A DNA stretch of 64,000 bases from contig JBMORU010000001.1 in the NCBI GenBank assembly GCA_049322215.1, positions 900,023 to 964,022 on the forward strand, written 5' to 3'. The notes below the pieces were generated by a model, which was not told the DNA's origin, did not search any database, and saw nothing but the letters and a program-made list of their open reading frames with translations. Each line of letters starts with the position of its first letter. Position 1 is the stretch's first letter. Source of the stretch: Patescibacteria group bacterium. GTDB taxonomy: Bacteria > Patescibacteriota > WWE3 > UBA101185 > UBA10185. Positions 9,337 to 31,344 of the stretch are shown piece after piece. Both the position numbers and the translations under genes were made by a program.

Positions 9337-10239
9337 ATGGAAATACCACCCAACCTTAAAACACTTTATAAACACTGGAATAAGCACACAGCCCAAACAT
9401 TACCTAAAACCAACCTTAAACTACCCACAGAACTAACATGGTTTATGGCAGAACGCATGAAAATTTGGGCTAAAAAAAACGCGGGCTTAAACCCACCTTA
9501 TACAGCTGACAAAACTCTACAAACATATAAATTTTGCAATATATACAGAGAACTAGACAGACAAACAATAGAAATACATAGCCATTTAAAAAATTTGCAA
9601 AGTGATTTTTCCCTTTGGTTGCTAAATATCGCATTTCACAGATTTGTGTGCAACCCAAATACAGTTAAAAACGTAGGTCTTTTGAATTATGACTCGCAAA
9701 ATAATAGGGAAGTATATGAAAAGTTACTTAACTTACCTAAACCTAAATATGGTGTTCCTTATGTTTTTCCTATAAGCGTAATTCAAAAATCAAGCTATGA
9801 AACACGCGAAAAGTTTTTTTGCCACTATTTACCTAAGAGAATTCCCACAGTAGCTAAAACAGTACAAAACTTTAATAACACAACTGTTAACAGTGCATTA
9901 GCGCAAATATTGCCTGCGTTTGGTTTCAACTTTAAATTCCACTGGACTGAAATATTAATCGATATCGCTTATCAGTTTCCTAATTTGATTAACTTATATG
10001 AAGATTTTTATATAGGCCCAGGAGCGATTCCTACAGCTAAATTAATTAACCCAAATCAAAATCCAAAAATACTTATAAATATCTGTATAGGAACTAAACC
10101 GGAGAATTTTCCATATTTAACTTTTAACAGCAACCCGGTTTTACTATCTGCAGAAAACTGGGAAGGAATATTTTGCGAATATAGAAAATATACAAACCTA
10201 AAAAAAGGGCAGGGAAGAGTTAGAAGATTTAATCCCTAA
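9337..10239 (+). CDS. Hypothetical protein (300 aa)
   Basis: ORF track. No recognised motif. Confidence 0.35.
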   Translation: MEIPPNLKTLYKHWNKHTAQTLPKTNLKLPTELTWFMAERMKIWAKKNAGLNPPYTADKTLQTYKFCNIYRELDRQTIEIHSHLKNLQSDFSLWLLNIAFHRFVCNPNTVKNVGLLNYDSQNNREVYEKLLNLPKPKYGVPYVFPISVIQKSSYETREKFFCHYLPKRIPTVAKTVQNFNNTTVNSALAQILPAFGFNFKFHWTEILIDIAYQFPNLINLYEDFYIGPGAIPTAKLINPNQNPKILINICIGTKPENFPYLTFNSNPVLLSAENWEGIFCEYRKYTNLKKGQGRVRRFNP

Positions 10240-10257: not shown

Positions 10258-12531
10258 TTATAACTTAGTAGACTTTAACCTTAATGCATTCATAACAACC
10301 GATATGCTTGAAAATGCCATGGCACCACTAGCTAACATTGGGTTTAATAATATGCCTAAAATAGGGTATAAAGCCCCCATAGCAACAGGAATTAAAATAA
10401 TATTGTACCCAAACGCCCAACCTAGATTTTGTTTTATATTCCTCATAGTTGCTTTAGAAAGTTTAATAGCTTTTGGTACCAAAGAAATATCTCCTCGCAA
10501 TAGTGTTATGCCCGCCGATTCTATTGCTACATCAGTACCACTTCCCATGGCAACGCCTATGTCTGCAGTAGCCAAGGCAGGGGCATCGTTAATGCCATCG
10601 CCAACCATAGCAACCACACTTTTTGTATTTCGTGTTTGCAATTCTTTAACCTTTGCAGCCTTATCTTCAGGGAAAACCTCTGCGAATACTTCATCAATAC
10701 CTAACTCTTTAGCTATTGCTTCTGCTGTTACTTTATTATCTCCAGTTATCATTACTGACGTAATTCCCATATCTTTAAGCACTTGAATTGTTTCCTTGGA
10801 AGATTTTTTAATTGAATCTGAAATACCAAGAAGCGCTACATTTTTTTTATCTACACTTACAAAAGAAACTGTTTGTGCTTTCTTACGAAGGCCTTCTGAT
10901 AAATTTGTTAAATCAGCACACTTCATTACCCCCTGTTGATCCATTAGTTTTTGTGTGCCTATTAGTACTTCATGACCATTTACATAAGCTTTTACACCAA
11001 GGCCAGACATGTCTTCAAAGCGTTCCGCCTCATAAACTTTATTGTTCTTTAAGTGGTTTACAACAGCTTCTGCTAAAGGATGATGTGATTTCTTTTCAAT
11101 TGAAAGAATTAACGAAGATATGTAAGCTTTTATATCAATCTCTTCAGGAATTTCCCAATTCAAACTACTTACAACCTCCTCAAGATTATTCATAAACGCA
11201 AATGTCTGCACCTCGGGTTCACCTTTTGTTAAAGTTCCTGTTTTATCGAAAACTACATAATTCACTTTATTTGCTACTTCCAAGCTCTCAGCATTTTTTA
11301 TCAATATACCGTTTTGAGCACCCTTACCAGTACCCACCATAATAGAGGTAGGGGTAGCAAGTCCTAAAGCGCAGGGACACGCAATAATTAATACGGCAAT
11401 AAGGTTAACCAAAGCTAAAATAAACGAAGGTTGAGGTCCAAAATTAAACCATATTAAGAACGTAACAATTGCAAGCATTAAAACTACAGGAACAAAATAA
11501 GAAGATACTGTATCTGCCAACTTTTGTATTGGTGCGCGAGATCCTTGCGCCTGTTTTACCATTTCGATTATTTGAGATAGCATTGTTTCGCTCCCAACTT
11601 TTGTTGCTTTCATTTCAAAAGAGCCACTTTTATTTATAGTCGCACCTATAACTGTATTTTCTACTACTTTTCTAACCGGCATACTTTCGCCAGTAACCAT
11701 GCTTTCATCTACAGCGGATTCTCCTTTAGTTATTACACCATCTACAGGAATTTTTTCTCCAGGTTTAACAATTAATATATCTCCAACAACGATTTGGTCT
11801 ACGGGAATTTCTAGCTCTTCCCCATCTCTTAATACTCGTGCTGTTTTAGCCTGCAAGCCAAGTAGTTTTTTAATTGCTTCCGAGGTTTGCCCTTTTGCCC
11901 TCATTTCCAAAAACTTACCAAGCAAAATCAAGGTAATAATAGTTGCGGAAGTTTCAAAATATACATGTGGTTCTATTCCAAAGTTTAAAAGTTGTGTCTC
12001 AAACAAAACCACAATTACAGAATAAAAATAGGCGACAGAAGTACCAATTGCAATCAAGGTATCCATGTTTGCTGTACGATTTTTAAGACCAGACCATGTA
12101 CTTTTGTAATACTGAGCTCCTACCCAAAATTGCACGGGTGTAGATAAAATCCACATTATCCAATAGTTTTTTAATATAGCAGGAGCAAATGGAATCATTG
12201 CACCAAAAAGCAAGAAGAATGTAAAAAAGCTACTCCAAACAAGTTTTGTTTTTACCTCCTTTACTTCTTTTGCCTTTTCTTTTTCGACTAAATCTTCTTG
12301 AGATTCGTTTTCCTGTCCAATTACTGCTTTGTAGCCCACATCCTCAACTGCTTTTGCAAAATCTTCTGTTTTGCAACTATCCTCATGCTCTACAGTTGCT
12401 TGTTCATTTGCATAATTCACGTGGGCAGATTTAACTCCGGGCAAATTTTCTAGACTCCTGCCAACATTTATTGCACAACTTGCACAATGCATACCTGAAA
12501 CATGAAATGTTGTTTTTTTAATATTACTCAT
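10258..12531 (-). CDS. copA: Copper-translocating P1B-type ATPase
   Basis: An N-terminal HMA domain carries GMHCASCA. The TM metal site CPC ([10 protein letters not shown]) is present. The phosphorylation motif DKTGTLT and the hinge GDGINDAP are present. The start is set at MSNIKK, which has an AGGAG RBS and an ATGA overlap with the upstream gene. Confidence 0.9.
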
Positions 12532-12899
12532 AAATCTGCTCCTGACTCTACAACCTTTATTTTTCCGTGAAACATGTTCATTCCACATGAAATTTCATAT
12601 TCTCCAACTTCTGCAGGGTTAATTACGATATTAGTAGTTTTGTTTAGTCCCAAGTGCTCTCTAATATTAAAATCTGGAATTACAACTTCGTCTAAACAAG
12701 AACTTGCATCTTTTCTATAAAATTTTAAGGTTACTGGCTTACCTTTTTTGACTTTGATTACATTTGGTTTATAGCCACCTTCTACAGTAATAGTTATCTC
12801 GTTTGTAACTTCTACGGCTTTGCTTTCTTTTTTCATAAAAAAGAACCAGTAAGTAAAAATTATTAATAGTATTCCTAATAAATTAATTAGTATTGTCAT
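12528..12899 (-). CDS. Cupredoxin-like small copper-binding protein (membrane-anchored)
   Basis: 123 aa with an N-terminal TM. The C-terminal motif [16 protein letters not shown] carries Cys/His/Met ligands, as in cupredoxin-fold domains. Its stop overlaps the copA start. Confidence 0.5.
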
Positions 12900-13034: not shown

Positions 13035-13472
13035 TTATAGTGCCCACTCGAATTTAAGAACTTCACCTTCTATTTCAGTTATAGTGAGAAAAATTGTCGT
13101 TGCTTGTGGATTCATTGTAGAAAATTGAAGTTCTCCACTTAAGTGATGTCCTCCGCGATCACCACTCCAAGACACCGGTTGATATTCATTTCCCTCATTG
13201 TCCGTTAAAGTAATTATTTTCTTCAGGTCAAAATCTAATTCTACAGAATGAGTATTGAGAGTAATCTCAAAATTGGAAGTACTTAGTGGGGTAACTTGAA
13301 CGTTTACAGCACCCATTGTTCCACTTTTAGAATCAAGAGGGTTTGTGTCAGATACGGATGTTGTAGGTTTTTCTGCTTTTGGGTTTGAAATAAATACCCA
13401 ACCTAAAAACACTAATAGTAATATTGTTATTGGAATAATAAACTTTTCAAATTTTTTCATAATTAGCTCCAT
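13035..13472 (-). CDS. Secreted hypothetical protein in the copper operon
   Basis: 145 aa with an N-terminal TM or signal. Predicted beta-rich. A GGHH motif is present. Confidence 0.35.
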   Translation of the reverse strand: MELIMKKFEKFIIPITILLLVFLGWVFISNPKAEKPTTSVSDTNPLDSKSGTMGAVNVQVTPLSTSNFEITLNTHSVELDFDLKKIITLTDNEGNEYQPVSWSGDRGGHHLSGELQFSTMNPQATTIFLTITEIEGEVLKFEWAL

Positions 13473-13944
13473 ATAAGTGTTTGAGCATAAAACCTATCCC
13501 AAACAAATTAAAAACTATACCCACAGCAAAAAGTTCTTTTGTGTAAGCTCCTAAAAAAGATGCGAGCGCAGAGGCACCTAAGATAGGTAAAACATCTACT
13601 GCATGATGCGCACAACAAGCAACCATTGTTGCAGTACTGGTGGCACCGGTAACTTTAGATACTTTATTAGTTTGCATTGTTTCCATGTGTTTAATTTGCA
13701 ATAACTTAGATAATGCAAGCTGCATTCCGAAACCTAAAGAAAGTGCCAATATCCAAGGACGGTAATAATTAAACTGAGAAATTGCAGTTTCCATACTACC
13801 TGTAGTGATTCGCATTAAAATGAGATATATGGCAAGTAAAAAGGTAGTTCCAAATACAAAATATGTAATTAGTTTAAAGAGCTTATTAGTGTTTTCCACA
13901 ACAATCTCCATTTTCTTCTTTGTTTTCCAACTCTTTAGTTTCAA
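13447..13944 (-). CDS. Small polytopic membrane protein with a CC..HH motif
   Basis: The segment TATMVACCAHHAVDV lies in a TM or loop region. The gene overlaps both neighbours. Confidence 0.35.
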   Translation of the reverse strand: MKLKSWKTKKKMEIVVENTNKLFKLITYFVFGTTFLLAIYLILMRITTGSMETAISQFNYYRPWILALSLGFGMQLALSKLLQIKHMETMQTNKVSKVTGATSTATMVACCAHHAVDVLPILGASALASFLGAYTKELFAVGIVFNLFGIGFMLKHLYGANYEKI

Positions 13945-14812
13945 CCTCTACTGTAGTATTTGTATCTCTTGTAGATAGAGCATGTTTAATAATTACAGTC
14001 AAAAATAAAACAATAGCCACAAGAAATATTGCATTAGCACCGGGAACAGAATTTAGCTTTAGTGCTAAACTATTTATATTCTCAGAAAAGCCCTGCGCCA
14101 TTTCTGCCATCGAAAAATCGGTTGCAAGGGCTAAATACACAATTACAAATCCCATTATTGTAAAAATGAAAAACGATATTACATTTCCCATTATTATTGG
14201 ATAGGTTTTAGAAAGTATTTTTATTTCACTCAATTTTCTCTTAAAAAACTTCATACCTAAAACTTTTTTCGTATCTAAAAAGTATGCGCCTATATACAGG
14301 GGAGTAACCATTCCCAAAACATACACAAAACCTATAAGCAATGCTTGCCACAAACTAGGGGACATAATGCTAAGGGTCAAAACTCCAACCAGTACAGGGG
14401 CACAACATGCGCTAGTTATACCTGAGAAAACACCTAAAGTGAAAATAGAAACAACATCCGTACCTTGTTTGCCCGACTGGTTAATATGTGGCATTGGAAG
14501 TTTAAGTCCTAATAAAGAGGCCAATCCAACCAGAATCATAAAAGTACCACCAAGCAAATAAATTTGTTCATGATACCTAAAAACTGCAAGAGAAATTAGT
14601 TTTGAGCCCAAAACTGCAGGAATCATTACAACAAATATGCCTAAGGAATAAACTAGCGTCATGAGTAAAACTCTTTTTCGCTCCTTAAAGACTGAGCCTA
14701 AATATGCAGGAAGCAAATACGACACACAGCATGGGGCAAATAAGGCTACCATTCCTGCCAAAAACGCTGCAATTATTGACGTTTGAAAAAGTATTGCTTC
14801 ATTCATAATCAA
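13886..14812 (-). CDS. CcdA/DsbD-like transmembrane thiol-disulfide or metal transfer protein
   Basis: Polytopic. Paired cysteines sit in TM segments at FAPCCVSYLLPAYLG and TSACCAPVLVG, reminiscent of the DsbD/CcdA SPCxxP core. The C-terminus ends in the tail GDCCGKH. Confidence 0.4.
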   Translation of the reverse strand: MIMNEAILFQTSIIAAFLAGMVALFAPCCVSYLLPAYLGSVFKERKRVLLMTLVYSLGIFVVMIPAVLGSKLISLAVFRYHEQIYLLGGTFMILVGLASLLGLKLPMPHINQSGKQGTDVVSIFTLGVFSGITSACCAPVLVGVLTLSIMSPSLWQALLIGFVYVLGMVTPLYIGAYFLDTKKVLGMKFFKRKLSEIKILSKTYPIIMGNVISFFIFTIMGFVIVYLALATDFSMAEMAQGFSENINSLALKLNSVPGANAIFLVAIVLFLTVIIKHALSTRDTNTTVEVETKELENKEENGDCCGKH

Positions 14813-15828
14813 ACTCCGCAGCCGCCACCACCACCTGAACCTTGTACTGGTTTAACCTTTGCAAGCACTGATCTATATCCTGAACCGCTAGAAAACTCTG
14901 CACCTAAAACTTCTTTAGCTACTACAGCAGCCCATTCAAGGTTTCTTTCATCTTCCATATACTTTGCAATTGTTAAGTACGTATCGGGAAACCAAATAGA
15001 ATTTACCGCAAGAGCACTGTTGTAAATTTCATCTTCGGAGTACCCTTTAGCAACCATCATTTCTATTAGACCAAGCATAGCCATACCATGATTACAGTCT
15101 GCAAATGCCGTATGATTATTACAACAAGGTCTATATATGTTTGATGCTATTTGCTTAATCAAAACTTGTTGTTCGGGAGATAAATTAAACAAATTATGTT
15201 TACCATAGTGATCCATTGCACTACCTTGAGCTAAATTCCAACCTCCTGTAGCTGCAAGATTTTCCACTTGAGGATATTCTGAACGCATATCTTCTAGAAC
15301 TAAACTTTGTTGAGCCAAACCCAATGCCCATAGAGCATTTAACACAAATCTTGAATTCTCCCTAGTTAAAACAATGGCTTCATCGTAATTAGTTGTCAAA
15401 ATCTTAGTGTAGTCCGCATTTGCTTTGCTTAAAGGGCCACCTCTAAATAAACTTAAAAATTTTTGCTGGTCTATTACGCCTACGCTAACTAGCTTTGTAC
15501 CAACATCACCCCACTTAACAGGTAACACCACACCCCCCTCGGGAAGTACTGCAACCTCTAGCCTTTGTGCTTGTTTTTCTGGTGTATTTTCTAACTCCTC
15601 ATTTAATTTTTCCTTATAGGCAATAAGCGCATTTACTTGAGATCTATAAAAGTAATATTGAATAATCGCAACACCTAGTGTGGAGTTAAATGTTATTAAT
15701 AAAACAAGAGACATGGGGACACTCTTTTTCAAAAAGCTTTTCATTGAGGTGTTAAAACGTCTAGGCTTTGAAAAGTCACCGGAGTTCGAAGTTTCTAGTA
15801 CTTTTTCTTTCATAAAACTATCTTTCAA
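14809..15828 (-). CDS. Membrane-anchored Cys-containing hypothetical protein with a Gly-Cys C-terminal tail
   Basis: 339 aa. It contains RPCCNNHTAFADCNHG. The C-terminus reads GSGGGGGCGV. An ATGA overlap joins it to the downstream gene. Confidence 0.35.
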   Translation of the reverse strand: MKDSFMKEKVLETSNSGDFSKPRRFNTSMKSFLKKSVPMSLVLLITFNSTLGVAIIQYYFYRSQVNALIAYKEKLNEELENTPEKQAQRLEVAVLPEGGVVLPVKWGDVGTKLVSVGVIDQQKFLSLFRGGPLSKANADYTKILTTNYDEAIVLTRENSRFVLNALWALGLAQQSLVLEDMRSEYPQVENLAATGGWNLAQGSAMDHYGKHNLFNLSPEQQVLIKQIASNIYRPCCNNHTAFADCNHGMAMLGLIEMMVAKGYSEDEIYNSALAVNSIWFPDTYLTIAKYMEDERNLEWAAVVAKEVLGAEFSSGSGYRSVLAKVKPVQGSGGGGGCGV

Positions 15829-15829
15829 A

Positions 15830-16342
15830 TTAATCTACTTCTTTGCTAACTACGTTTCCTGTGAGCCTAAACTCAACCGTACGATTACTTGGATCATTGG
15901 TATCAAATGAAACTAAACGAGTAATTGGCCCGGTGCCTTGAGGTCCATGAAACAGGGGATCAAATACAACCTTTACTTCGGCAGTGGAATCTGGCGCTAA
16001 TGTGCCTTTCCAACTAGATGTAGCATGCATACCAAAAGCAGGACTTTGTACTCCAGCAATAGTTACTTGAGCTTCTGTACACATACAAGAGGTCTTGAAA
16101 TTCGATATATCAAGGTTTGAAGTACCAGCATTCTTAATTAGAAAAGTCTTTTCTACATTGCCGCCCTCAATGTCTATTTCACCCCAATCGTGCAACTTGG
16201 CACCTAACACCTCAACTTTTGCGTCCCCACTGCTTTCTAAAACCGGAGGCTGTGTTTTAGTTGCAAAAATAGTGCCTAAAATTAATATAAAAACTGTAGA
16301 AATACCTATTAAGCTTATTAAGATTTTGTTTTCCTTAGTCAT
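15830..16342 (-). CDS. DUF1573-like secreted or membrane-anchored protein (paralog A)
   Basis: HDWGEI...KTFLIKNAGTSNLDISNFKTSCMCTEAQV fits the DUF1573 pattern of a beta-sandwich with a CxC motif. A second conserved block reads FDPLFHGPQGTG. Confidence 0.5.
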   Translation of the reverse strand: MTKENKILISLIGISTVFILILGTIFATKTQPPVLESSGDAKVEVLGAKLHDWGEIDIEGGNVEKTFLIKNAGTSNLDISNFKTSCMCTEAQVTIAGVQSPAFGMHATSSWKGTLAPDSTAEVKVVFDPLFHGPQGTGPITRLVSFDTNDPSNRTVEFRLTGNVVSKEVD

Positions 16343-16359
16343 TTAGCAAACCTTTCTAC

Positions 16360-16848
16360 TCAATCTAAAATTTTTACATAAATATCAAATTGCATTTCTG
16401 GTGAATTAGCATCATTAGTTTTCACAAATACCGAACGTGTTAGCTCACCTTGAGGTTCTTCATGAAAGTTTGGATCAAAATAAACTGTTAGTTGAGCCTT
16501 TTCATTAAACCCGAGTATTGTTTTATCTACTTCTGCAGACGTACACCCACAAGATGTAGAAATATCACCAATCTCTAGTTGTTCTTTACCGTGGTTTTCA
16601 ATTTCAAAAGTGGTACTAACAACACCGTCATTTCTAGATATAGAACCAAAATCATGCGTATTATTATGTGTTTCTGCTAAGGGTTTATTGTAATTAATTT
16701 CACTGTGATGAACTCCCATCATTCCTACACCCATATAGTTATTAAACCTGTTTATGCCTAGTAAATAAGATAGAGTGGCAACATTCATTAAAACTAGAAT
16801 TGCAATTACTCCATAAAGTACTTTTTTCTCCGTCATATCCGTTTGCAT
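16360..16848 (-). CDS. DUF1573-like secreted or membrane-anchored protein (paralog B)
   Basis: HDFGSISRNDGVVSTTFEIENHGKEQLEIGDISTSCGCTSAEV, with a second block YFDPNFHEEPQGE. It is clearly paralogous to 15830..16342. Confidence 0.5.
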   Translation of the reverse strand: MQTDMTEKKVLYGVIAILVLMNVATLSYLLGINRFNNYMGVGMMGVHHSEINYNKPLAETHNNTHDFGSISRNDGVVSTTFEIENHGKEQLEIGDISTSCGCTSAEVDKTILGFNEKAQLTVYFDPNFHEEPQGELTRSVFVKTNDANSPEMQFDIYVKILD

Positions 16849-17228: not shown

Positions 17229-18602
17229 ATGCAAAAAAAGGATAAAAAGAGCAATAAAACAAAAAAAAGATATTTTGTACAAGGCATGCACTGCAGTACC
17301 TGTGAAATACTTATTAAACAAGATATTGCAAATCTTCAGGGTATAAATAAAGCCACTGTTTCTTTAAGTAAGTCACATGTAGTTATTCATGCTAATGAAA
17401 CAACTAACATTCCTTCAAGAAACACTTTAAATAAGTTATTTAAAGAATTAGGTTACACTTTTCACGAACAAAAGCCCAAAGAACAAAAACTTAGTAGGGA
17501 AGAGTCTTTAAAAATTATAGGAATAGCACTACTATTTATCATCGCTTTTTACACACTAGAAAAATCCGGAATATTTATGAAATATTCTATAACTGCTCAA
17601 TCATCCTTAGGAGCATACTTTGTTTTTGGATTAGCTGCCGGAATTTCAAGCTGCGCAGCACTTGTTGGGGGGATTTTACTGTCACTTTCGAAAAACTGGA
17701 ATAATATGTATGCAAACAATAAAAGAAAGAGTGTTCTACCTTTTATTTACTTTAACTCATCAAGAATACTAACCTTTGCGCTACTTGGAGGAATATTAGG
17801 GTACCTTGGAAGCTTTTTACAATTATCTATAACATTAACCTCAATTTTAACTTTACTTATTGCATTACTAATGCTGGCATTAGGATTTCAAATGATTGGG
17901 ATTAAGTGGTTTAATAAGTTTAGTTTTAACTTTGTTGGAAACAATAAATACCTAAACAAAAACTCAGAACTAAACGGCAAATACATACCCTTAATAGTAG
18001 GCGCCTTAACTTTTTTTGTTCCATGTGGATTTACCTTAATTGCTCAAACTAACACATTAAATGCAGGTAGCTTTTACAAGGGTATGCTTCAATTAACTGC
18101 GTTTGCACTAGGAACCCTACCAATATTGGCATTGATTAGTTTTTCGAGTGTTAAATTTTACTCAAACCCGAAGTTTGCAAAAAAATTTAGTTTGTTCTCA
18201 GGCGTAATCATAGTGTTTTTTGCACTTTACACAATAAACTCACAGCTAAATGTATTAGGTTTAACAAGCCTTAACGATATTTCTTTTTCAAAAAGCGTAA
18301 CTAGCAAAAGCGACATACAAATAAATAATGCTAATTACCAGGTAATACAACTTGAAGCTATTGGGTTTGAATATTATCCAAAAGAAGTAACAATTCAGTC
18401 GGGAGTGAAAACGCAGTGGTCGATATACGATAATGGGTCAGTGGGTTGTGCTAAAGCAGTATATGCTAGGGGACTATACCCAGATGTCATTTACTTAAAA
18501 CCTGGCATGAACACTGTTGAATTTGTTGCGCCCAAACCAGGTACATATAAAATTTCTTGTTCAATGGGAATGGTACCTCCAGTAACTGTTAGGGTTATAT
18601 AG
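17229..18602 (+). CDS. HMA-domain / polytopic membrane / C-terminal cupredoxin-like fusion protein
   Basis: The N-terminal region reads GMHCSTCEILIK, a CxxC HMA domain. The middle has about 8 TM helices with TM cysteines at SSC and VPCGF. The C-terminus reads YKISCSMGMVPPVTV, homologous to the C-terminus of 12528..12899. Confidence 0.55.
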   Translation: MQKKDKKSNKTKKRYFVQGMHCSTCEILIKQDIANLQGINKATVSLSKSHVVIHANETTNIPSRNTLNKLFKELGYTFHEQKPKEQKLSREESLKIIGIALLFIIAFYTLEKSGIFMKYSITAQSSLGAYFVFGLAAGISSCAALVGGILLSLSKNWNNMYANNKRKSVLPFIYFNSSRILTFALLGGILGYLGSFLQLSITLTSILTLLIALLMLALGFQMIGIKWFNKFSFNFVGNNKYLNKNSELNGKYIPLIVGALTFFVPCGFTLIAQTNTLNAGSFYKGMLQLTAFALGTLPILALISFSSVKFYSNPKFAKKFSLFSGVIIVFFALYTINSQLNVLGLTSLNDISFSKSVTSKSDIQINNANYQVIQLEAIGFEYYPKEVTIQSGVKTQWSIYDNGSVGCAKAVYARGLYPDVIYLKPGMNTVEFVAPKPGTYKISCSMGMVPPVTVRVI

Positions 18603-24935: not shown

Positions 24936-26027
24936 ATGAAAAAGAAGTATTTTCTACTTTTAGTATTATCATTTGGCACCTTAGCAATTGTAATACTTTT
25001 AATTCCACAGTTTGTTAAACAAAAAAACTATATAGAACGTGCTCAAAAAAAATACGAGGAAATCGAGCAAACACCTTTACAAAACCCAACAGTAGATACA
25101 ATACCCTTAAACAAAAAAGTCTACCTATTAATATATAATCCAAAAATAAACGACCAGTACACAAATGAGTATTTTGGTTGGAATGACCCAGAAGAAATTA
25201 CGAATGAAGTTATCGCCTTTTTCAAAAATGTTTCTGAAGGCTATTTAAATTACGAAATAGTTCAAAAAAAGGTTGTAGAGGAATTTCCTGCAAAAGAAGA
25301 CGGCTTTGTATATACATTTGAAAACTATATTGAATGTGTAAATAGCAATGGGGAAAAATGCCATGATCCCGATATAGCCGACTACGTAAAAATATTAGAT
25401 GCGAACAACATTTGTGAAATGTTAAATAACGATGAGATTGACGAACTATGGCTTTGGGGAGGCCCTTGGTTTGGATACTGGGAATCAAATTTAGCAGGAA
25501 GATATTCGTTTTGGTATAACTCTAACCCTACACACTTTAACACCTGTAAAACACCTTTACCAATTATGGGTTTCAACTACGAAAGAACAAAAAACGAAGC
25601 TATACACAATTTTGGTCATAGAGCAGAGAGTACTTTAAAAAGAGTTTTTCAGTCGTGGGATGCAGAAAACACGCATGGATGGAATAGATTTGCACTACTT
25701 TCAAGGAATAATAATGGCCAAGGGGGTTGTGGAAACACACATATTACAGTAAATGGTACCGAAGATTACATTTACACAAATAAAGATAATGTAATGTCTA
25801 ATTGTGAAGAGTTTAAAGATTATCCCAATATAGAAAATACTTACAAAATGGTTAATTGCAATGACTGGGGCTGTGATGAGTTTGAATACTATACTTACTG
25901 GTGGAACAATATTCCAAGAAACACAGGAATAAATAAAGATGCTTTTACAGGCCAAGAAGTACTAAATAACTGGTGGAAATACATTTTTGATTTGAGCTGG
26001 ACATACAATAAAACAACTACTTATTAA
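24936..26027 (+). CDS. Secreted Cys-containing hypothetical protein
   Basis: N-terminal TM or signal. Multiple Cys residues. W/Y/N-rich. Confidence 0.4.
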   Translation: MKKKYFLLLVLSFGTLAIVILLIPQFVKQKNYIERAQKKYEEIEQTPLQNPTVDTIPLNKKVYLLIYNPKINDQYTNEYFGWNDPEEITNEVIAFFKNVSEGYLNYEIVQKKVVEEFPAKEDGFVYTFENYIECVNSNGEKCHDPDIADYVKILDANNICEMLNNDEIDELWLWGGPWFGYWESNLAGRYSFWYNSNPTHFNTCKTPLPIMGFNYERTKNEAIHNFGHRAESTLKRVFQSWDAENTHGWNRFALLSRNNNGQGGCGNTHITVNGTEDYIYTNKDNVMSNCEEFKDYPNIENTYKMVNCNDWGCDEFEYYTYWWNNIPRNTGINKDAFTGQEVLNNWWKYIFDLSWTYNKTTTY

Positions 26028-26090
26028 GCCCATAGTATGATATAATTTCGCAAATAAAACTTAACAAACACCTTATATAAGGAGAGACAA

Positions 26091-27608
26091 ATGAACGTAG
26101 TTTATTGGCAAATGGGAGCTTTGGTAGTAGTTATTTCTGCTGTCATAGGTCTTATTGCGAAATACGCATTGGATAAGTCAGAATCTGACTTGGAAATTAC
26201 CTGGACAGAGTATGCTATTGCTGTTGTGCTAATTTCTGTGGCTTTAGGCCCCTTTGCTGTTTGGCGAGGATCTGAAATTGCACGAAACAACCTTAAGTCG
26301 TTTAACGAAAACATCAACGCGGTAGTGACAGGTGTCAGCATTTCTCAAAAAACCTGCGAAAGAGATGGGGACTGTGTACACACCTATGACTGTGACCGCT
26401 ACAGATGTTCTTACTCATGCGATAGTGACAATGATGGGGACAGCGATGACACTTGCTATAAGTGGTGTTATCACAGTTGCCCATACTGTAGCGTGGAGTA
26501 TCAGCTGTTAATTCACACAAACACCGATGGTTGGTCTGGACGAAATCCGGTTATTGCTTCAAATATCATTCCTCCGGACGCGGATCAAAATTACCGCTGG
26601 CGTCAAAGTGAAGCCATTCCCCAAGGAATTCAAGATGCGTATGGGCGTTACCCGCAACAGTTTTTAGACGCCTTTTACAACCTGCAAAATGGCACCGAAG
26701 CACTACCATTTGTGTACCGGCGACAGTACAACAGTTACACGCTGGCTGCAAATGTTGATTCACCTGAAGAGTGGCAAGATGAAATTACATTGTTGCAACA
26801 GCACAAGCCCAATTTGATGCCAACACTGCAAACAACGGTAACAGGCAGCAACCAGGCGCACCGGGTTTACTTTGTAGGATTTACGCCAACGCCTGCGCAA
26901 GCGCAAGAATGGACAACCACCTTAAGCTATATCAACAGCCCGTTTGGTAACGACAGACAAGGCGACTTGCATGTAGTCATTATTAACAAGCAGGGTGTTG
27001 ATATGAGTTTGACAGATGCCCTAACCGCCATAAAGTACGACTGGCAAAACAGTGCAAAGTACGGCGATGACACCATGGCCAAAAATGCAGTATTGGTTGG
27101 TTTGGAAACTGACGACGGAGCAACAGTATTTCGTGCTGCAATGGTAACCGGCATGCCAGAAGAATTGTTTGATTTGCAGTATAACGATGATTTGCGTGCT
27201 GCAATAGCAAACGACTTAACAAATAAAGGGTTACCTCTTGACCCACAAGTTTTGTTTGGCCGTGCCACAATGCCTTTTACACCACAAACTGAGGAATGCA
27301 CAATTTTTAGCTGCTTTCGTGGTGTGGGGCCAGCGCAGCTTAGTGGGGGTGTTTTGACTGAGCGCTTGTTTGGTGTAACCAACCCGGAGTTGGCATTTCA
27401 GCGAATTAGCATGTCTGCCAAAGATCCAGAAGACGTAGGTCCCGGTTTTGTGGCACTTGATGAGCTAATTATTCCAACACCAAAACAGCAAACCTGGATC
27501 GTGATTTTATCAACGGTGTTTGCTTGCCTGGCTTGGGTTGCTACCGCACTGATAGGACAAAGGTATCGACCGTTTTACAACAGATATAGTAGATTTGGTA
27601 GGTACTAA
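26091..27608 (+). CDS. Membrane protein with an extracytoplasmic Cys-cluster (GC-elevated gene)
   Basis: Two N-terminal TM helices are followed by the Cys cluster CERDGDCVHTYDCDRYRCSYSCDSDNDGDSDDTCYKWCYHSCPYCSV, a large ectodomain and a C-terminal TM. GC is about 45-50% against about 33% background. Confidence 0.4.
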   Translation: MNVVYWQMGALVVVISAVIGLIAKYALDKSESDLEITWTEYAIAVVLISVALGPFAVWRGSEIARNNLKSFNENINAVVTGVSISQKTCERDGDCVHTYDCDRYRCSYSCDSDNDGDSDDTCYKWCYHSCPYCSVEYQLLIHTNTDGWSGRNPVIASNIIPPDADQNYRWRQSEAIPQGIQDAYGRYPQQFLDAFYNLQNGTEALPFVYRRQYNSYTLAANVDSPEEWQDEITLLQQHKPNLMPTLQTTVTGSNQAHRVYFVGFTPTPAQAQEWTTTLSYINSPFGNDRQGDLHVVIINKQGVDMSLTDALTAIKYDWQNSAKYGDDTMAKNAVLVGLETDDGATVFRAAMVTGMPEELFDLQYNDDLRAAIANDLTNKGLPLDPQVLFGRATMPFTPQTEECTIFSCFRGVGPAQLSGGVLTERLFGVTNPELAFQRISMSAKDPEDVGPGFVALDELIIPTPKQQTWIVILSTVFACLAWVATALIGQRYRPFYNRYSRFGRY

Positions 27609-27660
27609 ACCTAATGAGTCATTTCTTGAAGCAACAAACTTTAAGAAGTGACTCTTTTTT

Positions 27661-28749
27661 TTATTCATCTACACAAAGCAGTAAATCGTAGAATACAGAC
27701 TCGTTCGTGGGAGTTTGATTTGCATAAGTTGCTTTTACACTGATTTCATAAACTTTATTTGCGTTATATACGCGTGTCGTTTCCCAAGGAGCATTGGGTA
27801 TCAAAAACCAACCTTCTCCAGGGTTTAAACCACTATCAGGGTATATTCCTAATGTTTCATCAGCAGCCTCTTCAGTGGGACCCTCCATAATTACTGTAAA
27901 GCTTTCATGCTGTTGCGGAGGAACACCGCAGCTACCACCATCTGGGCATTGGTAACAAAGTGGGCCATCGGGACATTGTTCAGGATGCCCCTCGCCTGCG
28001 TAGCCTACAATATAAAGTCTGGAAGGTTCATCAAAAACTATTTCATAGGTATCGGTTGCAACCCCTTTAGTCACTACTAAGTCAGTTAAGCGTGTTAGTT
28101 CTTTTGTTCCAGAAGGACATGCAAGCACAGGGGGATCCCAAGCTTCACATAAACCACAATCACTAGAACACGAACTACAAGACTCACTTGCAGAACAATC
28201 TCCATCTCCACACACTGGGGCACAAGTACCACAATCTGCAGAACAGGTAGAGCAACTTTCACTACCATTGCAGTCTCCATCACCACAAATTGGAAGTGAT
28301 GTGCTTCCTCCCGAACATGAGTTTTCTATAGCAGCACAGCTTTCTTCATGCTCGAAAACTTCATTATCAATTGAACAAAAGCTTAAGCATCCCACGTCGA
28401 AACGAGTTGCATCGATAGCGTAACCATCTGGGGATCCAGCAACATAGCGATATGAATATAGGGCGCCTTCTGGGGTTCCATTTGGCCAATTAGATATTTG
28501 TGTGGCAACACCAGCTTCATCCATAATATTATCGTCACTATTTGTATCTTTCGGGTAATAACCCTCAATAATTCTAAAGTTATGTAAACCTTCTTCGAGT
28601 TTTTTTAAATTAGTTCTAACTACTGAATTTTTTGTGGCATCAACCTGACCCCGTCTGTTTATTACATTTACAACAACACCAGAAAGCGCAGCAATCATTG
28701 CCACTACAATTAAAACTTCAATTAAAGTAAATCCTTTTTTGTTAGTCAT
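27661..28749 (-). CDS. Type IV pilin-like protein with 2 tandem Cys-rich 24-aa modules
   Basis: The N-terminus MTNKKG|FTLIEVLIVVAMIAALSGVV is a class III prepilin signal with Glu+5. The middle carries 2x CGDGDCxxSESCSxCSxDCGxC. The C-terminal domain is shared with the next gene. Confidence 0.65.
   Translation of the reverse strand: MTNKKGFTLIEVLIVVAMIAALSGVVVNVINRRGQVDATKNSVVRTNLKKLEEGLHNFRIIEGYYPKDTNSDDNIMDEAGVATQISNWPNGTPEGALYSYRYVAGSPDGYAIDATRFDVGCLSFCSIDNEVFEHEESCAAIENSCSGGSTSLPICGDGDCNGSESCSTCSADCGTCAPVCGDGDCSASESCSSCSSDCGLCEAWDPPVLACPSGTKELTRLTDLVVTKGVATDTYEIVFDEPSRLYIVGYAGEGHPEQCPDGPLCYQCPDGGSCGVPPQQHESFTVIMEGPTEEAADETLGIYPDSGLNPGEGWFLIPNAPWETTRVYNANKVYEISVKATYANQTPTNESVFYDLLLCVDE
28144..28287 (-). 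repeat. Two in-frame 72-bp tandem repeats encoding Cys-rich modules
   Basis: Same module as 29213..29572, here in two copies. Confidence 0.65.
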
Positions 28750-30058
28750 CTATACAAAATAATAAAGTATATCGCACCGATTCGTTAATAGCCGTGGCAT
28801 CTGCATATGTAGCACGAACTCTAACTTCATAGGCTTGCCCAACAGCGTAAGTACTAGAAGTAACCCACGGTAATCCTGCTAACATGTACCAACCATCGTC
28901 AGGGTTTAAACCACTATCGGGGTAAATACCCAATTGTTCAGGCAGTGGTGGGCCAACGGTACGTGCTACTTCAACAATAAAACTCTCATGTTCTTGTGCT
29001 TGGCCACATAATGGCCCACTAGGACAATCTTCTGGGTGGCCTTCTCCAGCATAACCATACATATAAATTTTAGAAGGTTTGTCTAGGTTAATTAAGTATG
29101 TATCCATTGTTGCACCACTGCTACTCCAAGTAACTACGGAGTCATTCATATAAGCTATATCATGCTGACCAGCAGGACATGCAAGACTTGGGGGTGTTAT
29201 TATTCCGCAGCTTGAACAATCTGCTGAACAAGTGTTGCACCATTCATTGGCAGAACAAATCCCATCACCACAAGAGGGCGCACATACACCACAGTCCGAA
29301 GAACAACTAGAACAGGACTCACCAACATTACAGATACCATCGCCACATGTGGGACCACAAGCACCACAATCAAGTGAGCATGAGGCACAAGTTTCACCAT
29401 CGCTGCAAATACCGTTTCCACAAGTTGGTGGACAGGCACCACAGTCTATTGAACAACTACTACAAGTTTCACCCCCATTACAGCTTCCATCACCACAAGA
29501 TGCTGCACACGCACCACAATCGGTTGCACAAGTTGAACAGCTCTCACCACCGTTACAGCTTCCATCACCGCAGGTAGGTGGTGGGGGAGGGGGAGGACCT
29601 GATGTAGCACCTGTACATGAGTTAACAATAGATGAGCAATCAACTTCATTTTCAAAAATTGAATTGTCTATAGAACAATAACTCAAGCAGCCGGTATCAA
29701 ACCGGGTTGCATCTAATACATAACCTTCTTGGGGAGAGTCTATATATGTGTAGGTATAAGTAGCACCTTCTGGAGTTTCATCGGGCCAATTTAAAATGTA
29801 AGTGCCCACACCAGATTCATCCATTATGCTGTTATTACTATTTGCATCTTGTGGATAATATCCTTCGGAGATTTTAAAATTTCCAATTCCATCAACAAGT
29901 TTTTCTAAATTTACTCTAACAACAGAATTTTTTGCAGTATTAATGTTTCTTTCGCGATTAATTGTAACTATTGCTACACCAGTAACCACACCCAAAAGGG
30001 CAATAACGATAAGGAGTTCAATAAGTGTAAAACCAAAATTTCTGTACACTTTTCTCAT
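28742..30058 (-). CDS. Type IV pilin-like protein with 5 tandem Cys-rich 24-aa modules (paralog)
   Basis: The start is reassigned to MRKVYRNFG|FTLIELLIVIALLGVV. A poly-Pro (P7) tract precedes 5x CGDGxCxxxExCxxCxxDCGxC. Its N- and C-terminal domains are about 55-60% identical to those of 27661..28749. It overlaps the downstream pilin gene by 8 nt. Confidence 0.65.
   Translation of the reverse strand: MRKVYRNFGFTLIELLIVIALLGVVTGVAIVTINRERNINTAKNSVVRVNLEKLVDGIGNFKISEGYYPQDANSNNSIMDESGVGTYILNWPDETPEGATYTYTYIDSPQEGYVLDATRFDTGCLSYCSIDNSIFENEVDCSSIVNSCTGATSGPPPPPPPTCGDGSCNGGESCSTCATDCGACAASCGDGSCNGGETCSSCSIDCGACPPTCGNGICSDGETCASCSLDCGACGPTCGDGICNVGESCSSCSSDCGVCAPSCGDGICSANEWCNTCSADCSSCGIITPPSLACPAGQHDIAYMNDSVVTWSSSGATMDTYLINLDKPSKIYMYGYAGEGHPEDCPSGPLCGQAQEHESFIVEVARTVGPPLPEQLGIYPDSGLNPDDGWYMLAGLPWVTSSTYAVGQAYEVRVRATYADATAINESVRYTLLFCIDD
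29213..29572 (-). repeat. Five in-frame 72-bp tandem repeats encoding the Cys-rich modules
   Basis: The periodic TGC/TGT pattern is visible on the DNA. It generates long shadow ORFs in several frames (track ORFs 29200..29681). A G-rich tract GGTGGGGGAGGGGGAGG lies just 5' in the coding sense. Confidence 0.7.
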
Positions 30059-30126
30059 ATATATATAGGATACATAAAGAAAAGCGCTAGGAAAAGCATT
30101 ATTTTTACAGCATAATATATACAGTA

Positions 30127-31344
30127 ATGGATAAGTACTATTCAAAGATATCTCGAATACTTTTAATTATTATTATACTTGGATTAGCTTATACTCTTGG
30201 AAAATGGGCGATTCAAATAAAAACAAATTCAAACACTATAAGAAAACAAGACAAAATTAAAGCACCTGTATCAGTAAAAAATGAACAACCAGAAAAAAAA
30301 CCTTCCTTTAATGACACAATTGAAGTTTACAGAAAACAAAAAGAACAAGAAATAGCTCTTGTTGAATCTAGTGTTTACAGTTTGCCAAACATAATAAGGT
30401 GGAATGACTATTTAATTTACGAAAATAAAGACAAAAACGTAATACTTGAAAATACAAATAATTTCGAAGAAAAAGTACTAATAGCAAAGGACTTTCTTGA
30501 AAATATAGATACAAATGGTAAGGGTATAAATCTTGCAGTATCGGCATATATTAGTGATTTTAAAATTATAGATGATGTACTGTACGTTTCTTATGGAGGA
30601 TATCTTATTGAAGGTGCCATATTTTGGATAGATTTATATAATATAAAAGAGCCACAAATCCTTAGAAGAGGTCCCAACCCACACATAGTGAAATTTGGTA
30701 AAGACTATTGGGTTAGAGAAGGTGAAGGTGACGCGTGTTGGGGATTTGCGCGATTTACACCCGTGAATTTAAATGAAAAAAGTTTAGGTTCAACACTAGA
30801 AGTTACCAGTGGTTGCACAGAAGGGGAATACTTACTGGGCTGGGATACAAAAACAGAGGCATTTATAACCACAAACTACACACGAGAAGATCCTTACTTT
30901 GGGTCAACTACGTATTTAGCATTAAACAAACTTGAATCTGATGGCACAAGAACAACCTTAATAAACATAGACTCCAACTTAGGGGCAAAAATAAAAGACG
31001 TTATTTTATCAAAAACTGAGAGTAAGGTTTACTTGTCCGATGCACAGTCATTGTATATGTACAACATTCCAACTAGTCAATTAAGTAAAATAGGTGATTA
31101 CGAAGACAAAGCTAAAGAACTGCAATTTATAAAAGTGTTAGAAGAAGGCGGTATATGTGTAAGAACAAATGATACAGCTCCTAATAAGCTTATAGATCAC
31201 ACAACGGCAAAATTTATACCGGATACAACTAAAAGATGCAACGACGGTGAAAATCTTTACGGCAAAGACAGATACGTTAAAGAAAATGTAGACTTTCTGC
31301 AAATATTAAGTGATTTGGAAAATTATAATTACAGAATAAAATAA
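30127..31344 (+). CDS. Membrane-anchored extracytoplasmic hypothetical protein
   Basis: 405 aa with an N-terminal TM. It is divergent from the pilin pair. Confidence 0.4.
   Translation: MDKYYSKISRILLIIIILGLAYTLGKWAIQIKTNSNTIRKQDKIKAPVSVKNEQPEKKPSFNDTIEVYRKQKEQEIALVESSVYSLPNIIRWNDYLIYENKDKNVILENTNNFEEKVLIAKDFLENIDTNGKGINLAVSAYISDFKIIDDVLYVSYGGYLIEGAIFWIDLYNIKEPQILRRGPNPHIVKFGKDYWVREGEGDACWGFARFTPVNLNEKSLGSTLEVTSGCTEGEYLLGWDTKTEAFITTNYTREDPYFGSTTYLALNKLESDGTRTTLINIDSNLGAKIKDVILSKTESKVYLSDAQSLYMYNIPTSQLSKIGDYEDKAKELQFIKVLEEGGICVRTNDTAPNKLIDHTTAKFIPDTTKRCNDGENLYGKDRYVKENVDFLQILSDLENYNYRIK

Follow-up and report, generated by a model that had tools for sequence, protein, structure and literature searches.

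A tandem pair of modular prepilin genes with six-cysteine repeat arrays and predicted jelly-roll domains in a Patescibacteria group bacterium

Modular type IV pilins are already known as a class, comprising over 1,200 proteins spread over 264 InterPro architectures, many of them from bacteria of the Candidate Phyla Radiation (CPR) (Raynaud et al. 2021, PMC8179133). Streptococcus sanguinis PilB has a vWA module and PilC a lectin module; such pilins are modelled at the pilus tip, with the bulky module clashing in the filament body, and many more are expected to exist with modules that lack database signatures (PMC8179133). Jelly-roll examples from Patescibacteria have also been published: the Saccharibacteria strain TM7x, whose type IV pilus genes are spread over several loci, encodes the minor pilins PilX1, with a database-orphan jelly-roll, and PilX2, with a beta-propeller; binding to the host requires PilX2 (PMC11623550). 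Genes for PilB, PilC, PilD, PilM and PilT are widespread among CPR bacteria, which in general lack PilQ (bioRxiv 10.1101/335083). Here we describe two adjacent prepilin genes, referred to as A and B, in a 64,000-nucleotide stretch (the window) of the 1.11-Mb contig JBMORU010000001.1 from a metagenome-assembled genome of a Patescibacteria group bacterium. Each encodes a tripartite protein with an N-terminal pilin module, an array of 22-residue six-cysteine modules and a C-terminal domain with a predicted jelly-roll fold:

28742-30058, minus strand: gene B, a 438-aa tripartite modular prepilin, open reading frame from ATG, identical to NCBI protein MFZ5425136.1.
27661-28749, minus strand: gene A, a 362-aa tripartite modular prepilin, open reading frame, identical to NCBI protein MFZ5425135.1.
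28742-28749, minus strand: the 8-nt overlap of the B stop and the A start, ATGACTAA.

With moderate confidence we interpret A and B as tandem paralogous modular type IV pilins in which a pilin module, a six-cysteine stalk and a jelly-roll head follow one another, and which probably act as minor or tip-located subunits that present a ligand-binding domain, most likely as an adhesin. The two genes are arranged head-to-tail with B upstream of A, and the products are paralogs (BLASTP E 6e-126 overall) sharing 55% identity in the N-domain and 51% in the C-domain; the initial annotation had recognized the paralogy and put the identity of these domains at about 55-60%, which is somewhat too high. The 8-nt overlap that it reported is present and implies translational coupling or co-transcription, and A and B are probably co-transcribed. 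NCBI names B a 'prepilin-type N-terminal cleavage/methylation domain-containing protein' and A a 'type II secretion system protein'. A longer TTG-initiated reading frame for B, extending to 30145, would run into the divergent gene at 30127; the products called by NCBI are likewise of 438 and 362 aa.

The overall plan resembles that of S. sanguinis PilB and PilC, with an N-terminal IPR012902/PF07963 pilin module, a short linker and one or more extra C-terminal modules; pilins of the S. sanguinis type are predicted to sit at the tip and to bind ligands, and the class is reported to be common in CPR bacteria. A and B differ in that their extra modules, the six-cysteine stalk and a jelly-roll with an EGHPE motif, are in neither Pfam nor NCBIfam, so that the InterPro-based census could not have listed this architecture, and in that the copy number of the stalk module varies. 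Because the cysteine module and the C-domain each occur in many non-pilin proteins and are joined by linkers, A and B fall within the definition of modular pilins. The order of parts (pilin module, flexible linker, repeat or spacer, C-terminal beta-sandwich) is also that of CofB of enterotoxigenic Escherichia coli and TcpB of Vibrio cholerae, which are minor pilins located at the tip (PMC8179133). These, however, belong to the T4b systems of diderms and have a beta-repeat domain as spacer rather than disulfide-rich mini-modules, and no sequence similarity of either to A or B was detected. PilX1 of TM7x, compared here by description, lies in a type IV pilus locus, whereas A and B are isolated, and has no described cysteine-repeat stalk. 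The locus is thus no new kind of machine or mechanism; what is new is the joining of a pilin to a tandem six-cysteine stalk, the nature of the two extra modules, both uncurated families of which the six-cysteine repeat is widespread and the jelly-roll head extremely rare, and the variation in stalk copy number both between alleles and between paralogs. The premise of the initial annotation that pilins are normally small does not hold for this class, given the documented modular pilins (PMC8179133) and PilX1 with its C-terminal jelly-roll (PMC11623550).

The N-terminal parts of the two proteins are the following:

29594-30058, minus strand: pilin module of B, residues 1-155, with a 9-aa leader (MRKVYRNFG), FTLIE with Glu+5, an alpha1 helix and a small head with four cysteines.
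28300-28749, minus strand: pilin module of A, residues 1-150, with a 6-aa leader (MTNKKG), FTLIE with Glu+5, an alpha1 helix and a small head with four cysteines.

Both carry genuine class III prepilin signals, as had been claimed from inspection of the translations. A begins MTNKKG/FTLIEVLIVV and B begins MRKVYRNFG/FTLIELLIVI (the slash separates Gly-1 and Phe+1), each with a short basic leader and Glu+5, and the leaders are followed by hydrophobic stretches of prepilin type, FTLIEVLIVVAMIAAL in A and FTLIELLIVIALLGVV in B. The matches to PF07963 (N_methyl; 27.2 bits for A and 29.4 for B, gathering threshold 21.2) and to TIGR02532 (25.9 and 25.1 bits, cut-off 16.3) are above the family cut-offs in both proteins. 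A profile built from the two N-domains matches geopilin in the PDB over the helix (E 2e-7), PilA 6xxd over query positions 10-117 (E 1.6e-3) and the pseudopilin GspG 5wda over positions 10-93 (E 4e-3). The last of these, together with a partial match to the GspG model TIGR01710 (A, 36.2 bits, E 5e-9, residues 5-90; B, 28.6 bits), raises the question of whether the proteins are type II secretion pseudopilins, as the NCBI name of A has it. The TIGR01710 match is confined to the N-terminal 65-90 residues, and neither protein reaches the equivalog cut-off of 88.85 bits, which A with its 36 bits misses by far; type II secretion genes are absent from the window, and Patescibacteria lack both an outer membrane and the PilQ secretin (bioRxiv 10.1101/335083), and we regard a role in type II secretion as highly improbable. 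Since the N-domain profile matches pilins beyond the helix, to about residue 117, and the GspG score is below its cut-off, the N-terminal part is best described as a pilin-class module and not as GspG.

The pilin head spans roughly 100 aa and has four cysteines, the pilin-module cysteines lying at residues 121, 125, 138 and 145; searched alone against Pfam and NCBIfam at E<=10 it matches no family above threshold. A single-sequence AlphaFold2 model of full-length A (mean predicted local distance difference test score, pLDDT, 43) shows a helix at residues 9-56, has pLDDT <50 in the pilin head and contains nothing usable beyond the helix. A metagenome scan returned 80 loci that match only the generic N-terminal helix or the head, and among 196 pilin-like open reading frames none has the cysteine module or the C-domain.

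No PilB, PilC, PilD, PilM or PilT gene and no further prepilin gene is present in the 64-kb window, nor are pilus genes found in about 10 kb past one end and a few kb past the other, where there are housekeeping genes only. This isolation would fit A and B being surface proteins that never enter a filament, with the class III signal and alpha1 serving as a PilD-processed membrane anchor or short pseudopilus stub, as is seen for substrate-binding proteins of the archaeal 'bindosome', and the stalk and head displayed on the cell surface. Such an arrangement would also suit the homologues of the stalk and head described below, which are non-pilins borne on ordinary transmembrane helices or lipoboxes, showing that the unit works without a pilus. 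We nonetheless think it unlikely, as scattered pilin genes are normal in bacteria and the N-domain is pilin-sized, has its own four-cysteine head and is 55% conserved between the paralogs, which is more than a plain anchor needs.

The pilin modules of both proteins are followed by a linker and the cysteine-rich array. In A the linker is STSLPI, and in B there is a run of seven prolines, as had been described:

29576-29596, minus strand: Pro7 linker of B, residues 155-161, identified from the sequence.
29207-29572, minus strand: stalk of B, residues 163-284, five 22-aa six-cysteine modules with a 25-aa period, identified by regular expression and Tandem Repeats Finder.
28147-28287, minus strand: stalk of A, two six-cysteine modules at residues 155-176 and 180-201, identified by regular expression.

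The pattern CG[DN]GxCx3ExCxxCxxDCxxC has two occurrences in A and five in B, in agreement with the counts first reported, and is absent from the rest of the six-frame translation of the window. The module had been given as 24 aa long, but Tandem Repeats Finder returns a 75-nt period for the repeat region, and the repeat unit is 25 aa, comprising a 22-aa core and a 3-aa linker. Two further long reading frames in this region, at 29232-29681 on the plus strand (a 149-aa Pro/Gln-rich example) and at 29200-29655 on the minus strand, are shadows of the 75-nt repeat and not genes. Cysteine makes up 6.1% of A and 8.7% of B, the average over the window being 1.2%, an enrichment far beyond chance. The totals are 22 for A (4+12+6 in pilin module, stalk and C-domain) and 38 for B (4+30+4), with no segment having an odd number.

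Separate scans of the module array, the C-domain and the N-terminal head against Pfam and NCBIfam at E<=10 gave a single match, a sub-threshold one to DUF7906 (E 0.18). The array itself has no match in either collection, TIGR02232 included, so that the comparison with curated cysteine-rich repeats that had been proposed as a check leaves the module without a curated domain; it also has no match among PDB sequences at E<=10, and a literature search for the CGDG motif gave nothing relevant. The initial annotation had likened the module to the Myxococcus cysteine-rich repeat TIGR02232 (Pfam DUF4215 / PF13948), and the two are alike in starting with CGxG and in being cysteine-rich, extracellular and tandem, the module too being frequent in Myxococcota. 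TIGR02232 is about 40 aa long with a CDDGN core, whereas the module is 22-25 aa with the spacing C-x4-C-x5-C-x2-C-x3-C-x2-C, and the TIGR02232 hidden Markov model does not match it.

The module extends well beyond this locus, as an extracellular 25-aa repeat of wide distribution. When A and the array of B were used as queries, about 40 proteins sharing it were identified, from sources including a Deltaproteobacteria (Myxococcota-type) metagenome-assembled genome, two Sorangium proteins and a Pacearchaeota archaeon; the hosts are secreted proteins as well as lipoproteins, from Myxococcota, Pacearchaeota and other groups, and other module-bearing proteins have a CAP, esterase, DNRLRE/SdrD_B or FG-GAP domain. 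Among 143 module copies of exactly 22 aa from the roughly 40 fetched proteins, C1, C6, E10, C12, C15, D18, C19 and C22 are invariant and G2, D/N3, G4 and G20 near-invariant, and the copies are mostly spaced 24-27 aa apart. The arrays often lie shortly after an N-terminal signal, lipobox or transmembrane anchor, a position that fits a role as a spacer or stalk, and at least 100 aa follow the array in 15 of 42 proteins. Within the fetched module-bearing set, the module occurs together with a prepilin signal only in A, B and their allele.

An extracytoplasmic location, even cysteine counts and the presence of the module in ordinary lipoproteins all point to the stalk cysteines forming disulfides. 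Like other small disulfide-rich modules, the repeat could, speculatively, also bind Ca2+ through its invariant D, E and D residues. The initial annotation had suggested a disulfide-knotted or metal-binding spacer displayed along the fibre. Along these lines, A and B would be major or abundant subunits, and the cysteine modules would coat the whole length of the pilus as a metal-binding or redox-active sheath. The very high cysteine content (6-9%), the CxxC...CxxC spacing within the module (C12-x2-C15-x3-C19-x2-C22), the copper-handling genes 9-17 kb away and the geopilins that head the PDB matches of alpha1 could all be accommodated by such a sheath. However, the geopilin matches do not extend past the generic alpha1 helix, A and B have no copper genes next to them, and the module is common in ordinary secreted proteins and lipoproteins, where disulfides are expected; the even cysteine count of each segment also speaks for disulfides. 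Furthermore, the pilin module bears another 210-290 aa, which would clash within the body of the filament in the way modelled for PilB of S. sanguinis (PMC8179133). This makes a tip or sparse position likelier than display along the whole fibre, and we consider the sheath improbable.

DsbD_2 and copper genes of the window can be noted here as a separate observation. Segments 10258-12899 and 17229-18602 encode an HMA-domain P-type Cu-ATPase, the cupredoxin-like protein next to it and a 457-aa fusion of DsbD_2, HMA and cupredoxin domains; the DsbD_2 membrane protein could affect the redox state of secreted cysteine-rich proteins, and is 9 kb from the pilin genes.

Downstream of the stalk both proteins end in a domain of 155-160 aa:

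28745-29206, minus strand: C-terminal jelly-roll domain of B, residues 285-438, a member of the EGHPE-motif family by alignments and exhaustive search.
27664-28146, minus strand: C-terminal jelly-roll domain of A, residues 202-362, with six cysteines, including a 10-aa CPDGGSCGVP insertion.

The shared C-terminal region had been taken as part of the pilin, but it is a separate domain of a rare surface-protein family, with a confident model predicting an eight-stranded jelly-roll beta-sandwich, which probably contains disulfides. Foldseek comparison of the head with the PDB and BFVD gives only weak, generic jelly-roll matches, none of them significant; with the PPC/collagen-binding (ColG s3) and carbohydrate-binding-module types of jelly-roll it shares about 10-14% identity, it has a motif set of its own, and the Pfam PPC family (PF04151) does not match it. 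Searched exhaustively by profile, 1.84 billion representative proteins yielded only 18 matches at E<=1e-3, at least two of which are repeat-protein noise, and a word-indexed search with an alignment of 17 sequences returned three proteins only. The family is characterized by the motifs CP.G, GYxxEGHPExCPxGxxC, QxxEEF, DxxxDAW, GPWxT and AESVxYKLTVC, and none of the 17 aligned members matches a Pfam family. In GTDB-representative contigs, an exact 41-mer had no match, and a scan with the alignment of the A and B C-domains gave 67 pattern matches of which none was confirmed. The full-length homologues are transmembrane-anchored CPR-like proteins or large multi-domain proteins, and none of those in other organisms is a pilin. 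The large ones carry pAdhesive_15, DUF11, GEVED, SdrD_B and beta-helix domains, which, judged from domain content, are the typical company of surface adhesins. Together with the predicted jelly-roll fold, these partner domains point indirectly to a possible part of the head in adhesion.

If A and B are modular pilins as we propose, they would be exported by the Sec system and then cleaved by a prepilin peptidase, and the pilin module would enter a type IV pilus, most likely at its tip or as a sparse minor subunit. The cysteine modules would fold as disulfide-stapled beads, possibly stabilized by Ca2+ bound to the invariant D/E residues, and the beads would together give a stalk that resists proteases and has its length fixed by the copy number. 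The jelly-roll head would bind a ligand, probably a glycan or protein on the surface of a host cell or substrate, and the two paralogs would present related heads at different reach, on two and on five beads. Concerning the peptidase step, we note a database protein of another organism (P0015, 430 aa) in which a prepilin peptidase (PF01478 and PF06750) is fused to a C-terminal pilin-like domain with a G/FTLIE motif, such that an enzyme and a substrate-like module are in one chain.

Comparison with a related allele shows that the stalk varies within the lineage. A Logan contig of sequencing run ERR15087771 is 98.7% identical to the locus over 2,079 nt. The two copies of A differ at a single residue (A203D), and in the compared stretch of B 17 of the 23 differing bases are synonymous and three codons change the amino acid, a predominance of synonymous changes that indicates purifying selection. 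In this B allele module 4 has been lost by a clean in-frame 75-nt deletion, and the contig retains four modules, its end truncating the first of them (four or more in total); module copy number therefore varies between strains. The suggestion of ongoing repeat expansion and contraction is borne out to the extent of this one-module loss, but DNA identity between modules within A and B is no more than 53-73%, showing that the arrays are old and not freshly expanded.

The strain differences are concentrated at 29048-29557, from the modules to the start of the C-domain, where the divergence is about 10% compared with about 0.15% in gene A and its flank; the one-module loss of 75 nt belongs to this tract too. 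In the alignment with positions 4-440 of locus L001, 23 of 26 mismatches fall within 29048-29287 and are mostly synonymous, and positions 4-231 of L001 are 89% identical. This mosaic pattern points to recombination or gene conversion acting on the repeat, or else to a chimeric short-read contig. A broader and more tentative proposal is that the six-cysteine unit represents a cross-domain family of extracellular mini-domains, found in Bacteria and in DPANN Archaea, that builds a rigid 'ruler' stalk, and that gain and loss of units (two, four or more, and five copies) together with the mosaic tract in B tune the reach or antigenic face of a pilus-tip adhesin with a new jelly-roll family. Were this so, the locus would encode a length-variable host-attachment device of an episymbiont.

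The GC content of the A and B region is 42-44%, compared with about 33% elsewhere. GC at third codon positions in A and B (0.24-0.25) is like that of the genome and the neighbouring genes, and horizontal transfer of the pilin pair, which the higher overall GC had suggested, is rejected on this ground; at second codon positions the module arrays reach 0.75-0.78, an excess due to their Cys, Gly, Ser, Ala and Pro composition.

Patescibacteria spend their lives attached to other microbes, the best-supported organ of attachment being the type IV pilus; the parts that recognize the host are mostly in unannotated 'hypothetical' domains, and this locus defines two building blocks of that kind. Confirmation would bring a new architecture into the catalogue of modular pilins and supply two candidate domain families for curation, and the stalk and head together would offer a tractable recombinant target for ligand discovery.

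The window is a low-GC (about 33%) stretch of housekeeping chromosome whose genes include NUDIX, dUTPase, GT87, Na/Ca exchanger and GlmS genes. A hairpin separates A from the convergent gene downstream of it:

27616-27654, strand unassigned: 16-bp hairpin between the stop of A (27661) and the stop of the convergent 505-aa gene (27608).

A T-run is present on the plus strand only, and the hairpin is a candidate bidirectional terminator. The convergent gene (26091-27608, plus strand) encodes a 505-aa hypothetical membrane protein with hydrophobic segments at both termini, an acidic cysteine-rich patch around residues 89-135 and no Pfam or NCBIfam family; GC at its third codon positions is 0.43 compared with 0.22-0.32 in all other genes examined, and the gene may have been acquired recently. 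Flanking the pilin and 505-aa genes are two further plus-strand genes, at 24936-26027 (363 aa) and 30127-31344 (405 aa), whose family-less products have hydrophobic N-termini resembling membrane anchors, and the segment of about 6.4 kb from 24936 to 31344 thus encodes five consecutive orphan proteins that are probably surface-exposed.

Another small surface-protein cluster is located at 13447-16848, where two tandem genes for proteins with DUF1573 / HYDIN-VesB-like Ig domains (15830-16848, minus strand; 170 and 162 aa) have three orphan reading frames (13447-15828) downstream of them. Finally, the product of 9337-10239 (plus strand) matches the helical domain of 5-hmdU DNA kinase (PF18723, E 5.5e-20), a family linked to the hypermodified thymidine of phage DNA and unexpected in a small CPR chromosome.

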